Positions 2,828-9,331 of a stretch of 30,031 nt of DNA are shown in pieces. The stretch is from positions 1 to 30,031 of IMG/VR virus record IMGVR_UViG_2648501437_000010; one strand, written 5' to 3'. Under the pieces are notes generated by a model. It worked only from the letters and a program-made list of their open reading frames with translations. It was not told where the DNA came from and did no database searches. Numbering within the stretch: the first letter of the stretch is position 1; every line of letters begins with the position of its first letter. The stretch comes from a virus (taxonomy: Duplodnaviria > Heunggongvirae > Uroviricota > Caudoviricetes). A program made the translations under genes and the position numbers.

Positions 2828-2857
2828 CAGTGTTTTAGCCTCGTGGATATTGTCACC

Positions 2858-3916
2858 ATGCGCATGAATAGACTTCCAGGATATGGCCTTCCCGAACTGG
2901 CTTTTTGGCCTCAGCCTAAATATGAACGGAATAAATGGTCGATGTTCTGTCTGAAACTCCGTAATGATGGAACCCTTGCTTGGTATCGGCGATATGTTGA
3001 TCGTGGTATGCCAAACCACGCTTTTGATGACGACTACGATAACTATCCTGAAGCAAGAAAAGCGGCATTAGAGCTGAATAAAAACGTGAGCTTTGACATT
3101 GAAAAACTTCCTCTATCTATGTTTCAAAAGAAGTCATTGCGTTTGAAAGTTGACAAAGCACTCAAAGCCAAATCACGTCTCATGGATGAAGAGCATATAA
3201 TGCTCAACGAAGCAATTAAGGCACACGCCAACGATCCGCGAGTGACATTAAATGAGTTAATAATTAACCCAGATTACGAAACTTTGCGTCAACCCCTTTT
3301 TGACGTGCTAAGCGAGATGCCTTACTTACATTTTGTTTTTCTTCCCAAATTCCAAGTTTCACTTCAACTCGTTGCTCCTAACACTTGGGAATGTTCATAT
3401 AACAACAAAGCTAAGACAGCGAAGATCTGCTACCAAGAACGCATAGCCAGAGGTTTTGGTTTATCAGGTGCTGCACATTGGGGAAAAACAAAAGCGACTA
3501 TTCGCTCAATGCTTCTGCCGCGTGCTAACCGGTTACTGCAACTCGCCAGCGTAAAAAGAATGCTGGATGAAGCTCTCAGGAATGGGCAAAAGGTACTGGT
3601 TGTTGGCAACTTTGTTTTCTGGTTTGAGGACAAAAATCAGGTAGGTTGGAGTGTTAAAGTTGCTAGCGAAAGCGAAACCACCTCAAGAGGCAATACGCTC
3701 TGGAAAGAAGGAACTATCATTTCAAAAAATCACGGTCGAATTGTCGTGCTGCCGTATACAAAAGAAAACGGTAAACATGTAAAAGGTTATACCAAGAATG
3801 CCCCTAACGACGGCAACGCAATTCCGAGACATAAGGATGAGTATGTCGAGTTGCCCTTTGAAATTTTGGATGGTGACTTGATGTTCAGTCTGTTCGGTGA
3901 GCTTAACTACGAATAG
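2858..3916 (+). CDS. hypothetical protein, the only plus-strand gene in the window
   Basis: Long ORF (track 2843-3916 from GTG; first ATG at 2858, giving 352 aa); TAG stop at 3914-3916; convergent with the partition genes and followed by a hairpin. No motif I can assign. Confidence 0.55.
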   Translation: MRMNRLPGYGLPELAFWPQPKYERNKWSMFCLKLRNDGTLAWYRRYVDRGMPNHAFDDDYDNYPEARKAALELNKNVSFDIEKLPLSMFQKKSLRLKVDKALKAKSRLMDEEHIMLNEAIKAHANDPRVTLNELIINPDYETLRQPLFDVLSEMPYLHFVFLPKFQVSLQLVAPNTWECSYNNKAKTAKICYQERIARGFGLSGAAHWGKTKATIRSMLLPRANRLLQLASVKRMLDEALRNGQKVLVVGNFVFWFEDKNQVGWSVKVASESETTSRGNTLWKEGTIISKNHGRIVVLPYTKENGKHVKGYTKNAPNDGNAIPRHKDEYVELPFEILDGDLMFSLFGELNYE

Positions 3917-3976: not shown

Positions 3977-4336
3977 TCAACCTTTCTTCATTAACTCGCG
4001 TTTAATTTCATCGGTTCGCATCGTGACATCGGCAGCGGTGATCGCCTCATTCAATTTCACGATGTCCTCGATTTCCTGCGGTGACTTCTCTGCCAGATGG
4101 AAAATGGCTGCTCGAATCACGTCAGAACGAGTGAACTTCTCGAAGCGAGGGATGAACTTCATCATCTCCAGCAGTTCGAAGTATTCGTCCTCCAGTGACA
4201 TTGTGCGGCTTTTAATTTTCTCTTTGCCACGAGTCGGGCGTCCCTGTGGTCTGACTGGTTGGCGCAAAGGAGTTGTGTTCTTAGCCGGTGCATCAGGCTC
4301 TTTGCGCTTTGCTAGGTCACCCATTTTCATGGACAT
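3977..4336 (-). CDS. small partition-protein candidate (ParG-like centromere-binding protein)
   Basis: 119 aa; basic, Pro/Arg/Lys-rich N-terminal tail followed by a short C-terminal folded region; ATG overlaps the parA stop (TAATG), implying translational coupling. Size and position fit a type Ib ParA partner. Confidence 0.5.
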   Translation of the reverse strand: MSMKMGDLAKRKEPDAPAKNTTPLRQPVRPQGRPTRGKEKIKSRTMSLEDEYFELLEMMKFIPRFEKFTRSDVIRAAIFHLAEKSPQEIEDIVKLNEAITAADVTMRTDEIKRELMKKG

Positions 4337-5004
4337 TATTCTTCTTCCTCCAGACTCAACAGATAATCTACAAATTCTTCAAACTCGGCTTCCGCCTTTT
4401 TGTCGCGCTCGCTACCGGTCATTTCAAAGATAGAACGACCAGACTCTTCCGCATCATCATAGACGTTGCGGTTATATAGATTGACTGGCGCAGACTCGAT
4501 GCCAAACGTCTCAACAATCTCTTTAGCCGCCAGAATGCGAGACACTTGTGATGGCAAAGCCGGGCACTGGTTCATGACCGCGCGGACCTTCACTTTATCG
4601 TTTACATTACGAACATTGTCGATAATAGGATCAATGTCACGCAGAGATTTCAAATCACGACGCTTAGGACGAAGCGGGATAATGATAACGTCGGCCATCA
4701 GCATCGCTTGTCGCTGAATTTCGGAGTCAAAGCCACCAGCATCTACCACTACAAACTCAGCTCTACCCTGAAGCGATTTTAGGTGCTTAATGATGTCATC
4801 CTGAACGTATGCAAAAGGAATCAGCTCAAGGTCTTCGTTCTGTCGACGGTCTTCACACCAGCTTGTTGTCGTGCGCTGAATATCTATATCAGTGATATAA
4901 ACCTTCTTCTTCTTTTTGACTTTCAGGCAAACGGCAATTTGCTGGGCAACGGTGGATTTGCCAGGCCCGCCCTTTGTGCCGCCAACCACAAAGATCTTGG
5001 TCAT
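4336..5004 (-). CDS. parA: ParA/Soj-family partition ATPase (small, type Ib-like)
   Basis: 222 aa; deviant Walker A KIFVVGGTKGGPGKST at the N-terminus, no N-terminal HTH extension; AAGGGA RBS. Confidence 0.85.
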   Translation of the reverse strand: MTKIFVVGGTKGGPGKSTVAQQIAVCLKVKKKKKVYITDIDIQRTTTSWCEDRRQNEDLELIPFAYVQDDIIKHLKSLQGRAEFVVVDAGGFDSEIQRQAMLMADVIIIPLRPKRRDLKSLRDIDPIIDNVRNVNDKVKVRAVMNQCPALPSQVSRILAAKEIVETFGIESAPVNLYNRNVYDDAEESGRSIFEMTGSERDKKAEAEFEEFVDYLLSLEEEE

Positions 5005-5130
5005 TGGAGAGTTCCCTTTGCGTATATAATTATCGTCTGAAACAACTTGTTTTCTTATATGTGATATAGCCTAAATGCCTACGGCTGCGGTGTAAAGGTT
5101 TAATGATAGGTACATAGGTGGGCTTAATAA

Positions 5131-5154
5131 CAAAAAACCCGCCGTAGCGGGTTT
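5131..5154 (-). terminator. rho-independent terminator ending the 5911-6330 / 5153-5926 operon
   Basis: On the minus strand: AAACCCGC-tacg-GCGGGTTT followed by TTTTTTG; GC-rich stem of 6-8 bp, 4-nt loop, U-tract. Overlaps the TAA stop at 5153-5155. Confidence 0.7.
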
Positions 5155-5926
5155 ATTGATTCATAGATCGTTTACTCAGAATGTTCACTATATGAGTACA
5201 AGCACCTGGGGTGAGATTGATTTTATTAGTCCCCCACTCTTCACGTCTTCGCATCTGGCCTCCGTCAGACTTACCGATATCCCACGGAATAAAACCACTT
5301 ACGCCACAGGCATCCTCACCCAATTCCTCTATAAAATTTTCGTTCTTCGTATCGTAAATTTCGACCAGTCCATGTTTGCGCATACTCACAGCCCAAAGAG
5401 TTGCGCCTTTTATCGTCTGTAACGTATCGCAAACCAAGTACTGATACTTATCTACGAGATAAAGGTAAGCAAAACTTGCGATGCCTAATCCCATATAATC
5501 AGCATGAGTAAAAACCCCTCTAATCTGCTTGGCGCTGACTTTTACTCCAGATTTATCCTTGATTGGAAACTCGCAGTAGGCCACGCGGAAGACTGTTTGG
5601 ACTGGCTGCCCCACATGCAACTTGTAGGATTCAATTTCTGCTCCTATCTCAAGAGGTGTGTAACCAGCACGTTTGAGTCGCTTAACTTCCTGCTCTTGGT
5701 AATCAGGATCACATGACTCAAGACACTCGCCAACAATACAGCGTTCATAGGCCGAATCAACAAGCTCGTATTCGGTAAATCGAATTAGATCGAAACCTCG
5801 GGAGATAAAATAGAACTCACCGAGAGCGATAATTCTCGTCGCTCTCGGCATTTCAGACAAGACCTTGCTGTAGTCTTCTATTTCAGGGATTAATCTGTTC
5901 GCCTGACCAATTAGAGATGGTGCCAT
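5153..5926 (-). CDS. hypothetical protein; weak GNAT-acetyltransferase-like motif
   Basis: 257 aa; segment HADYMGLGIASFAYLYL resembles GNAT motif A (h-P-x-Y-x-G-x-G-I-G/A). Start overlaps the upstream ORF by 16 nt. No other recognisable motif. Confidence 0.5.
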   Translation of the reverse strand: MAPSLIGQANRLIPEIEDYSKVLSEMPRATRIIALGEFYFISRGFDLIRFTEYELVDSAYERCIVGECLESCDPDYQEQEVKRLKRAGYTPLEIGAEIESYKLHVGQPVQTVFRVAYCEFPIKDKSGVKVSAKQIRGVFTHADYMGLGIASFAYLYLVDKYQYLVCDTLQTIKGATLWAVSMRKHGLVEIYDTKNENFIEELGEDACGVSGFIPWDIGKSDGGQMRRREEWGTNKINLTPGACTHIVNILSKRSMNQ

Positions 5927-6330
5927 GAAGTATTCTGTGCCGTTGATGGTTCCATATCATCGATTTTACAGAATTTCTTCATAAAAGACTCTACAACTTG
6001 TTTGATTCGTGAAGAAATATCACGATCTAAACACTTCAAGTCAGGATATTGTTCAGCAACATCTAAAACAAAAGAGGTTCGTTTACCGTTAGCGACAACC
6101 TCGGCCAACGGTTTAACCAGTGACGTAGAATTAGAGACCTTTTCGGCACGCGCCACATCGCTCTTAAAAGTGACGATGAAGTGCTGGCGGTTAGCTGATT
6201 CACGGCACAACATACGTCGCACTTCTACTGCGTCTTCACTGTTGTGAAAACGCATAGGAAAGCTGTCGATAACCGCAGTATTGGTGCGGATCGTCTGCAT
6301 AGAACGCGTATTGTCATGATAATTTAGCAT
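5911..6330 (-). CDS. hypothetical protein
   Basis: 139 aa; ATG at 6330 with AAGGTGGA RBS; preceded by a 209-bp structured non-coding spacer. Confidence 0.5.
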   Translation of the reverse strand: MLNYHDNTRSMQTIRTNTAVIDSFPMRFHNSEDAVEVRRMLCRESANRQHFIVTFKSDVARAEKVSNSTSLVKPLAEVVANGKRTSFVLDVAEQYPDLKCLDRDISSRIKQVVESFMKKFCKIDDMEPSTAQNTSWHHL

Positions 6331-6539
6331 ATATCCACCTTAGCCGTTAACACAAGTGTCATTGCGGCACCCCTCTCGGGGTTGAAGGCTACGAGAATGC
6401 GTAGCCTGTATGTGCCCACTTACGTGGATGCCTAATAAATCTACATCAAATTACTAAATGATTCAACATGAGCTTGAGTGAACAGGCGTGTATATGAGTG
6501 AAGATGCCATCTTTAGGATAAAAGGTAAACTGAGATCAA

Positions 6540-6776
6540 TCATCGACTCAGCTCAGGTGCCCCCCACTCACACAGCCTTTCACCTATCGTATTGTGGATA
6601 AGCAACTGTCGCTCCGTTTCCTCAGTCATAAAATCCTCTCTACTCACATAGATAGGATTTGCAGCATCGCAGAATAGCACGCCTGGAGCCTGCGTCTTAA
6701 TCACGCACCCATTTATCAAACAGCTCGCGATGAACACCAGAGGCATCTTTTTGCCGCACTTCATTAACCGTTTCAT
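6540..6776 (-). CDS. outer-membrane spanin candidate (Rz1-like lipoprotein); start ambiguous (6785, 6776, 6764 or 6746)
   Basis: Reading frame offset from, and overlapping the 3' end of, the i-spanin gene. N-terminus MKRLMKCGKKMPLVFIAS-C has a basic n-region, hydrophobic core and a lipobox-like IAS|C. Confidence 0.45.
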   Translation of the reverse strand: MKRLMKCGKKMPLVFIASCLINGCVIKTQAPGVLFCDAANPIYVSREDFMTEETERQLLIHNTIGERLCEWGAPELSR

Positions 6777-6948
6777 TTTTGACATCCACTGTGCTTTGAA
6801 GTCGTTTTCTGTCTTCCTGTTTTGCCTTCTCTTCCATTGCTCGTCGCGCCGCATTTCCGCCCATCGTGTAAGCGCCGACCAGAACGAAAAGAACGGCAGC
6901 CAGCGTAATCAAAGCAACTTTTAGCTTTGTCATCAGGCTGCCTAGCAT
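6697..6948 (-). CDS. inner-membrane spanin candidate (Rz-like)
   Basis: 83 aa; N-terminal TM segment VALITLAAVLFVLVGAY followed by a charged, coiled-coil-like region; AAAGGGATGG RBS; a lipoprotein ORF begins inside its 3' part in another frame. Confidence 0.55.
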   Translation of the reverse strand: MLGSLMTKLKVALITLAAVLFVLVGAYTMGGNAARRAMEEKAKQEDRKRLQSTVDVKNETVNEVRQKDASGVHRELFDKWVRD

Positions 6949-6949
6949 A

Positions 6950-7642
6950 TTAGACCATCCCTTTCTGGTGTCTTCTTACCTGCGACCAGGCGATAAATCC
7001 AGCCACAACAATAGTGGCAATACCGAAGATGATGCGTACTGTATCCCCGCTAGAGATATGACCTTGTGCTTTATCCATAGCAGCGGAAACCTGCGGCATA
7101 ACATCGGCCAGCTGCGCCAGACCAATACCTGCTGTAACAGTTGCGCCTGCTGTTTCTTTAGTTACAGGAACAGCCTTCACGGTTTTCACCGGCTTAACGA
7201 CGCCAGCTCGACGCAGACCTTCCTCAATAACTTCTGCCGCATACCAGGTGTTCAGCGTTTTTAGCGGACCTCGCCCATTCTCATGGCGAATGATTGCCTC
7301 AACCAAAGGTCGAAGAATGTCGTAATCATGCAGATCGATAATCATGTCTGCGGTTACACCAACGGCTTTAGACACCTCATTAATGTAGGCGTCAGTGTTG
7401 TTTTCATTCGGCGGTGCCCAACGTTCAATAACTTCACGAATGGTATCGATACTTGAGCCGTCTTTTGCGCGACGCTTGTCGTGGTAGGTAATTAGAGTCA
7501 CCGCCAGTGCACGAATCCCCCAAACAGGGTCTTTAAACGTGCAAAAGCGCGGTTCGTCTGGATTCGCAACCAGACCTTGCCACGGTGATCCTTTATCAAG
7601 ATTACCGGGGTTATTATTACGAATGCCTCTCGGAGTCTTCAT
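6950..7642 (-). CDS. tail-anchored membrane protein (soluble N-terminal domain + C-terminal TM helix); in the slot where an endolysin would be expected
   Basis: ATG at 7642 with strong AGGAGA RBS (ACAGGAGATCAAGGATG); N-terminus MKTPRGIRNNNPGNL; Ala/Thr/Val-rich linker; C-terminal IIFGIATIVVAGFIAWSQV followed by RRHQK. No catalytic motif I can assign. Confidence 0.6.
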   Translation of the reverse strand: MKTPRGIRNNNPGNLDKGSPWQGLVANPDEPRFCTFKDPVWGIRALAVTLITYHDKRRAKDGSSIDTIREVIERWAPPNENNTDAYINEVSKAVGVTADMIIDLHDYDILRPLVEAIIRHENGRGPLKTLNTWYAAEVIEEGLRRAGVVKPVKTVKAVPVTKETAGATVTAGIGLAQLADVMPQVSAAMDKAQGHISSGDTVRIIFGIATIVVAGFIAWSQVRRHQKGMV

Positions 7643-7655
7643 CCTTGATCTCCTG

Positions 7656-7979
7656 TTATTGCAGTCCATTTTTTACGCCATACGCGGCTAACCCCAAAAG
7701 CAGTGCGGTAATAATGAACGACGTTATTTTAGAAACAATGCCGCCAAAGAACCCACTTGAGATGGAATCTAACCGGTTAAGGAGTTTGTCCAGGTTGGAG
7801 TGTTGAATACTATGTTGCGCCGGGGTCATATCACCAAAGTAGGTTTTCAGCTGATCGTTGACCTCCTGGCCAATTTCTTCACGTAGCTCTTTACCTAATT
7901 TGCCAACAACCTCCCGAGCAACGATCGCGGCAATACGCTCAACTTGCTCTGTTGTAACGCCCGCCATCTCGTTCGACAT
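7656..7979 (-). CDS. small tail-anchored membrane protein (holin-like or superinfection-exclusion candidate)
   Basis: ATG at 7979 preceded by GGAGGA; about 107 aa with a charged soluble N-terminal part and a single C-terminal TM segment (IITALLLGLAAYGV). Confidence 0.5.
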   Translation of the reverse strand: MSNEMAGVTTEQVERIAAIVAREVVGKLGKELREEIGQEVNDQLKTYFGDMTPAQHSIQHSNLDKLLNRLDSISSGFFGGIVSKITSFIITALLLGLAAYGVKNGLQ

Positions 7980-9301: not shown

Positions 9302-9331
9302 AAGGCCCGATAGCGGGCCTTAATTTTTATT
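9302..9331 (+). terminator. 8-bp GC-rich stem-loop (aaggcccg-atag-cgggcctt) followed by TAATTTTTATT; terminator-like only in the plus orientation
   Basis: Perfect inverted repeat 9302-9309 / 9314-9321 followed by a T-run; lies directly 3' of the tfa stop on the minus strand, where it is preceded by A-run and followed by only a weak U-poor tail. Confidence 0.35.

Follow-up and report, generated by a model that had tools for sequence, protein, structure and literature searches.

A mobile two-gene cassette with a predicted GNAT-fold protein in a variable slot of SSU5-like phage-plasmids

What is the role of two overlapping genes, both annotated as hypothetical, that sit between the lysis and partition modules of a phage-plasmid? 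The locus lies in IMG/VR virus record IMGVR_UViG_2648501437_000010, of which we analyzed positions 1 to 30,031, a stretch of 30,031 nucleotides that we refer to as the window. It comprises a small gene encoding 139 amino acids (aa) and, downstream of it, a large gene encoding 257 aa, and neither protein family is annotated in the databases searched. The two genes are an obligate unit. This unit is horizontally mobile, moving as a whole between unrelated contexts, and the large protein is a divergent GNAT-fold protein, a placement on which its predicted fold and profile comparison agree. We give a probability of about one half to the reading that the locus serves in conflict, as an autonomous and horizontally mobile two-gene module that is toxin-antitoxin (TA)-like and/or anti-phage and has a GNAT effector. 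We favor this reading because the anatomy of the locus, its obligate pairing, its mobility, its diversification, and its neighborhoods match those of TA and defense modules, and its fold matches that of one toxin class.

Pairing, mobility, and slot exchange

Both open reading frames (ORFs) and their overlap lie where a first-pass annotation of the window had placed them (Table 1). Its location of the pair also holds, with holin, endolysin, and Rz/Rz1 spanin genes of PHROG lysis families upstream and a ParA gene downstream. In all 44 loci with a full-length large gene, a homologue of the small gene is found directly upstream on the same strand, mostly with the same 16-nt overlap, and overlap or direct abutment of the two genes is seen again in most variants. 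The overlap, as read from the sequence, is consistent with translational coupling. The pairing also holds in Klebsiella phage-plasmids and in ~110-kb plasmids of Acinetobacter baumannii, where homology of both partners can still be detected (hhalign, 98% and 99.8%). The small partners of the most distant relatives (L046 and L047) were rejected as homologues of the small protein, with an hhalign probability of 0.5% for L046. In Winslowiella arboricola, the small gene is absent and the large gene is reduced to an 87-aa C-terminal fragment (L014, 8001-8264), which looks like the remnant of a decayed cassette.

Table 1. Positions of the cassette features and of neighboring features in the window.
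Feature	Position	Strand	Remarks
Small partner gene, 139 aa	5911-6330	-	phrog_2594
Large gene, 257 aa	5153-5926	-	phrog_3307; divergent GNAT-fold protein (predicted fold and profiles)
Gene overlap, 16 nt	5911-5926	-	ATGGCACCATCTCTAA; direct sequence reading
Intrinsic terminator	5129-5154	-	AAACCCGCTACGGCGGGTTTTTTG; closes the cassette; terminator scan
Motif A region	5456-5506	-	HADYMGLGIASFAYLYL; residues 141-157; putative acetyl-CoA pyrophosphate-binding loop M145-G-L-G-I-A150
Family-specific motif	5393-5431	-	CDxxQTxxGAxxW; residues 166-178; beta5-alpha4
Putative -35 hexamer	6461-6466	-	TTGAAT
Putative -10 hexamer	6438-6443	-	TAGATT, preceded by TG
Structured 5' leader RNA	6331-6431	-	conserved
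Hairpin 1 (HP1)	~6416-6427	-	variant-specific 5' hairpin
Hairpin 2 (HP2)	6386-6407	-	GCUACG/CGUAGC
Hairpin 3 (HP3)	6369-6382	-	CCCC/GGGG, UCUCC/GGAGA, or CUUCC/GGAAG
Hairpin 4 (HP4)	6343-6368	-	outer stem GCCG/CGGC and variable inner stem
Shine-Dalgarno (SD) sequence	6335-6341	-	AAGGUGG
ParA gene	4336-5004		Pfam
Conserved block	5070-5118	-	ACCTATCATTAAACCTTTACACCGCAGCCGTAGGCATTTAGGCTATATCAC
119-aa gene	3977-4336	-	phrog_5111 (unknown function)
357-aa ORF	2843-3916	+	phrog_22329 (unknown function)

As a phage-plasmid, the window is SSU5-like. The 3.4-kb stretch that surrounds the cassette is 94-97% identical to Escherichia phages Cyrano, PhiR41_1, and CMS-2020a and 83% identical to Salmonella phage SSU5, in matches that span just ~57% of the stretch; the middle part, which is the cassette, is unaligned at the DNA level. 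An Escherichia fergusonii plasmid is 100% identical over this entire stretch. Clinical E. coli, Shigella, Salmonella, and Klebsiella commonly carry SSU5-like phage-plasmids, and some variant of the cassette is carried by hundreds of sequenced plasmids (tblastn finds the large gene in 374 plasmids of PLSDB) and thousands of assemblies. Most members of the SSU5 supergroup, including thousands of Klebsiella contigs, have a pair variant in the same slot.

What occupies this slot, between ParA and Rz1, is exchanged (5005-6539 in the window, 2988-3822 in L001, 1533-2084 in L049). At least 11 variants of the pair were found, with 25-40% protein identity and differences of 60-75%, and at least three of them, 28-33% identical, are found in backbones that share ParA and endolysin at 99.5-100% identity. 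In many other SSU5-like plasmids, a GNAT and TacA1 toxin-antitoxin pair (KacT/TacA) fills the slot instead, on the opposite strand, and pHCM2 of Salmonella Typhi has a single unrelated 183-aa gene without a Pfam match. The slot genes of Cyrano, a KacT/TacA pair, are morons expressed in the lysogen, and Cyrano itself still produces virions and persists at ~5.5 copies per cell (PMC9928086). The genes of our pair are thus variable and replaceable and are not conserved core components, as had been anticipated from the sequence, and a core function in lysis or partition is rejected because the slot is replaceable.

Outside phage-plasmids, copies of the cassette are found in P2-like prophages between gpA and the packaging genes (L007, L032), once directly beside AriA/AriB of PARIS. 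This gpA-gpQ region is the old/tin defense hotspot of P2-like prophages defined by Rousset et al. (PMC9122126). Other P2-like prophages have the cassette between gpS and gpV, together with PIN (VapC) and YafQ toxins (L029/L030). It also occurs in the moron region of a Rouxiella prophage, beside RelE/helix-turn-helix (HTH) pairs, and as isolated two-gene islands between Pectobacterium core genes, without phage genes nearby. The accessory character that the first-pass annotation assigned to the locus from its position and insulation is borne out by these settings, in particular the PARIS-adjacent hotspot and the gpS-gpV slot. Among more distant relatives, P0150 follows gpA in a P2-like prophage and has a small ORF before it, one lies in an integrase island, and one in a T4-like phage.

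The large and small proteins

Neither protein has a match in Pfam, NCBIfam, or PADLOC, both belonging only to PHROG families of unknown function, and a PDB sequence search with the family profiles found no match. A word-indexed homologue search from one sequence gave 3 matches only, so that profiles were required, and a scan of genome contigs gave only 4 loci. An exhaustive profile search of 1.84 billion representatives recovered 74 proteins at E ≤ 0.001, the weaker of which have Pfam GNAT domains over the matched stretch. The curated GNAT models of Pfam (Acetyltransf_1, Acetyltransf_7, and Acetyltransf_10) give no match to the large protein of the window at E ≤ 1, and a single member of the 26-sequence family alignment reaches Acetyltransf_1 (E = 0.16); the link to GNATs is thus seen at the profile level only.

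The AlphaFold model built from this alignment has a predicted local distance difference test score (pLDDT) of 80.3 and a predicted template modeling score (pTM) of 0.78, and contains the mixed alpha/beta core of the GNAT fold, so that an enzymatic fold is predicted. Resemblance to acetyltransferases of protein N-termini and ribosomal proteins (Naa40/NatD, RimJ) is at the level of the fold only, with 7-14% sequence identity. The motif A region is located at the beta4-alpha3 junction of the predicted fold. A weak GNAT-like acetyl-CoA-binding signature had been noticed here at first reading, and correctly so, because hhalign joins the family at 99.2% probability to a distant subfamily of 190-230-aa proteins and aligns M-G-L-G-I-A with R-G-R-G-L-A of P0137. 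That subfamily has a textbook motif A, YRGxG[IL]A, together with the motif SDxxQTxxGxxLW. Compared with the canonical Q/R-x-x-G-x-G/A, the window retains Gly4 and Ala6, and the family consensus is x-x-x-[GA]-x-A.

Fourteen residues are invariant across the 26 sequences, namely R114, Y117, Q134, G137, Y154, D167, Q170, T171, G174, A175, W178, W215, D216, and W231, and A150 of the putative loop is almost so. D167 through W178 fall in the family-specific motif that follows motif A (Table 1), and its D, Q, and W, along with the Y, are also invariant or almost invariant in the distant subfamily. The N-terminus, M-[AP]-P-x-[IL]-[IL], is kept even where the genes do not overlap, and in the distant subfamily, and is therefore under selection at the protein level. 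Around the large protein we also observed a wider, unannotated GNAT-like superfamily (phrog_3307, 7522, 15502, and 1349) marked by SDxxQTxxGxxLW (L048, 908-1477; P0127-P0153), which includes proteins of T4-like lytic phages; related GNAT domains are found in very long multidomain proteins.

The small-protein family comprises 51 clusters, some of which are present on more than 1000 contigs. The predicted structure (pLDDT 79.8, pTM 0.76) shows an alpha/beta domain whose C-terminal helix is long and whose tail is disordered. Its N-terminus (RSIQTIR) is conserved, as is that of the large protein (MAPSLI..YSK). Because a Foldseek search of BFVD gave no significant match and profile comparison of the small with the large protein was negative, we treat the notion that the small protein is a GNAT-like pseudo-domain as a lead and not a result.

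Promoter, leader RNA, and terminator

In all Enterobacterales contexts, nucleotides upstream of the small gene are far better conserved than the coding sequence. The putative promoter, with the layout TTGAAT, 17 nt, TGnTAGATT (6466-6438), recurs in SSU5-like, P2-like, and chromosomal copies, where the -35 element reads TTGAAT, TTGCAA, or TTGATC; in the window, it would place the transcript start near 6429-6431. This element scores below the 9/12 cut-off of the promoter consensus scan. The -10 element is almost invariant (TAGATTT) over 16 divergent leaders, although the proteins encoded by these cassettes are just 25-40% identical.

The promoter is followed by a structured leader. The earlier description of the whole 209-bp spacer as structured holds for its 3' ~100 nt, with a folding z-score of -3.49 in the window and of -2.2 to -4.3 in eight of ten variants, and fails for the full spacer, which is weakly structured (z = -1.85). 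Plain MAFFT alignments of the leader misalign hairpins of differing loop length, which makes RNAalifold unsuited to them, and a trimmed alignment was partly informative; the structure was therefore assessed with folds of single sequences, with a structure given by hand, and with a covariance model. The single-sequence folds share one hairpin architecture in at least 10 variants despite their differing sequences. In most of the minimum-energy structures, the SD sequence is paired with a segment that lies upstream of HP2 and thereby closes a multi-branch junction; in the window this is the pairing of 6424-6429 with 6333-6338. Since the 6424-6429 strand also belongs to HP1, HP1 and the SD pairing are mutually exclusive in the window. 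These folds suggest that the leader may sequester the SD sequence.

The covariance model, R1, covers HP2 to HP4 and finds exactly one match per cassette, directly upstream of the small gene, including at loci on which it was not trained; it has no match in Cyrano, pHCM2, the Acinetobacter plasmids, or the distant relatives. In the model-fitted alignment, 83.8% of cells are paired, versus 74.5% in shuffles and 30-49% in slid controls. Compensatory changes are seen in 15 of 21 pairs, versus 7.0 in shuffles, and none of 500 shuffles reaches either value, counts that lean towards structure because the alignment was fitted to the model. An Rfam cmscan of 4900-6700 at E ≤ 1 gave nothing beyond an rsmX match at the terminator that is due to chance (20 bits, where the gathering score is 56), and a tRNA-like gene in the leader was rejected, as ARAGORN found none. 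Whatever the proteins do, the leader is a candidate new cis-regulatory RNA motif.

Cassettes of the window type and of the L037 type have almost identical leaders and proteins that are only ~30% identical, and for this reason the leader and the downstream backbone are probably recombination anchors for cassette exchange. In one phage copy (L036, ~7476-7620), the HP4-SD end of the leader is partially duplicated in tandem, and the SD and start codon of the first copy are degenerate.

At the other end, the terminator hairpin (5154-5135) has an 8-bp stem with 5 GC pairs, a 4-nt loop, and a T-run. The first-pass annotation had called it the strongest in the window; the terminators at 414-438 and 9302-9321 are equal or better, which leaves it among the three best. 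The same terminator follows the variants of the window, PhiR41_1, SSU5, L027, and L031, and other variants have a different one. Backbone homology restarts ~15 nt beyond it, at ~5118. There is no terminator between the lysis operon and the cassette, which lies directly downstream. The cassette is self-contained, as first proposed: a conserved promoter, a leader, and a terminator belong to it, and it is transferred as a unit.

A conflict module and its alternatives

Among the closest known systems are the GNAT/DUF1778 type II systems (TacAT, AtaRT, KacAT, and ItaRT), with family-defining features as given in PMC9177977 and PMC6698736. Like them, the cassette has a small gene first, overlapping a gene for a GNAT-fold protein, and is carried on plasmids and prophages, and a KacT/TacA1 pair of this type fills the identical slot in sister phage-plasmids. 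It differs in that its partner protein is without the ribbon-helix-helix (RHH)/DUF1778 domain and its large protein has an N-terminal beta-hairpin extension and the conserved N-terminal sequence MAPSLI. The cassette falls outside the TacAT/KacAT family, since the tests for the antitoxin domain and for toxin homology were both negative, whereas the Cyrano antitoxin, as a positive control, matched TacA1 with an E value of 8e-26. General GNATs score equal to or above GNAT toxins in comparisons with the large protein. To our knowledge, no structured RNA leader like that of the cassette has been described for GNAT/DUF1778 systems.

The anti-phage systems of the P2-like hotspot (old, tin, PARIS) share with the cassette their location, a compact self-contained operon, and high allelic diversity. 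If the small protein is a degenerate GNAT-like unit, its combination with a putatively catalytic GNAT would recall pseudo-dimeric tandem-GNAT enzymes of the MshD, Eis, FemX, and ORF14 type, except that the units of the cassette are separate polypeptides. We know of no described defense effector with a GNAT plus GNAT-like architecture, and none was found in the literature searched. DefenseFinder-based surveys of these plasmids list few systems for SSU5-group elements, with none for the pWPMR2-like and pHCM2-like clades (10.1101/2025.09.12.675607).

On the conflict-module reading, the locus is made up of its own promoter, a structured leader of ~100 nt, the gene for the small partner, the gene for the large protein (a divergent GNAT-fold acyltransferase), which would be translationally coupled to it, and a terminator. 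The large protein would modify a cellular or phage target using acetyl-CoA or another acyl-CoA; by analogy with GNAT toxins, this target might be a component of translation such as aminoacyl-tRNA. The small protein would bind the large one and control or direct it, and the leader would limit translation by pairing with the SD sequence. In a phage-plasmid, such a module might stabilize the plasmid and/or exclude competing phages. A more ambitious version, which we advance tentatively and consider somewhat unlikely in full, is that the pair represents a new two-gene TA or anti-phage family in which a divergent GNAT acyltransferase effector is held or directed by a GNAT-like pseudoenzyme in place of an RHH antitoxin, its translation being gated by a new SD-sequestering leader of ~100 nt with several hairpins that may be signal-responsive, and which is spread by cassette exchange among phage-plasmids, P2-like hotspots, and chromosomes.

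A GNAT-based TA or defense function, if true, would give acetyltransferase toxins a new architecture, in which the partner has a different fold and the enzyme is larger. It would also help to explain the stable persistence of these plasmids and their exclusion of other phages, and would add an uncharacterized occupant to the well-studied P2 hotspot.

Several observations weigh against a conflict function. At 257 aa, the GNAT protein is ~80 aa longer than known GNAT toxins (~175 aa), with no specific similarity to KacT (hhalign probability 0.2%). Position 1 of motif A, usually R or Q, is Met in the window, and the first Gly varies in the family; as placed by the alignment, W178 would lie in the alpha4 region where GNAT toxins hold their catalytic Tyr. 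The small protein has no RHH, HTH, or DUF1778 domain in Pfam or NCBIfam searches, and its predicted fold is alpha/beta. Searches of PADLOC-DB v2.0.0 at E ≤ 1 found no match for either protein or for the L007 homologues, although the neighboring AriA, the positive control, was detected with an E value of 9e-25. No literature was found on either protein family, whether by accession number or as a GNAT-based defense system. Distant relatives occur in T4-like lytic phages, where a role in defense is unlikely, and residence in hotspots is no more than suggestive, hotspots also carrying non-defense morons.

Alternatively, the pair might be a non-toxic two-subunit acyltransferase acting as a lysogenic conversion moron, which we consider unlikely. 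The GNAT and its GNAT-like partner would here form a pseudo-tandem-GNAT enzyme. Its substrate would be a small molecule, an envelope component, or a protein, and its activity would benefit the lysogen (for example, through detoxification of an antibiotic or bacteriocin) without TA or abortive-infection logic. The small protein is predicted to be well folded, unlike a labile DNA-binding antitoxin, and the chromosomal copies between housekeeping genes would suit such an enzyme. Its extreme allelic diversification in identical backbones would, however, be unusual for a detoxifying enzyme; moreover, the slot is swapped with a bona fide TA pair, and the cassette repeatedly adjoins TA and defense genes.

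A role in phage counter-defense or host takeover, in which the acetyltransferase inactivates a component of host immunity or of a competitor on behalf of the phage-plasmid, appears less probable again. The lytic T4-like contexts of related GNAT-like proteins (those of the four PHROG families named above) would fit such a role, as would the very long multidomain proteins with a GNAT domain among the distant matches and the late read-through that is possible from the lysis operon. These points are set against isolated copies that are flanked by chromosomal core genes and have no phage genes in the vicinity, a sigma-70-type promoter belonging to the cassette itself, and the behavior of the known occupants of its slots, which the prophage expresses and which counter other phages (PMC9122126, PMC9928086). 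A function for the SSU5-like backbone (as a partition accessory or in lysis timing or lysogeny control), or a catalytically dead GNAT scaffold with a regulatory or structural role, is improbable: the prevalence of the pair in this slot across the SSU5 supergroup and the degenerate motif A of several variants speak for it, but unrelated genes replace the pair in pHCM2 and in Cyrano, with virions made and copy number held there (PMC9928086), and P2-like prophages, chromosomes, and Acinetobacter plasmids carry the pair without an SSU5 backbone.

The surroundings of the cassette offer some further observations. The 357-aa ORF just past the par operon is present only in some otherwise near-identical backbones, and the plasmid that is 100% identical over 4300-7700 has a DUF2971 gene on the other strand where this ORF would be; its position looks like a second variable slot. 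The 119-aa gene shares 1 nt with the end of parA and carries the annotation "RelE/ParE putative toxin" in Cyrano. In our searches it matched no toxin family, only phrog_5111 and, faintly, an aCcr1-type protein, and its position suggests a partner of ParA (a centromere-binding protein) rather than a toxin. Just past the cassette terminator, the block ACCTATCATTAAACCTTTACACCGCAGCCGTAGGCATTTAGGCTATATCAC is kept in all SSU5-like backbones, that of Cyrano among them, regardless of what fills the slot. This block, which marks where recombination at the slot ends on the right-hand side, is likely to be a promoter or regulatory region of parA.

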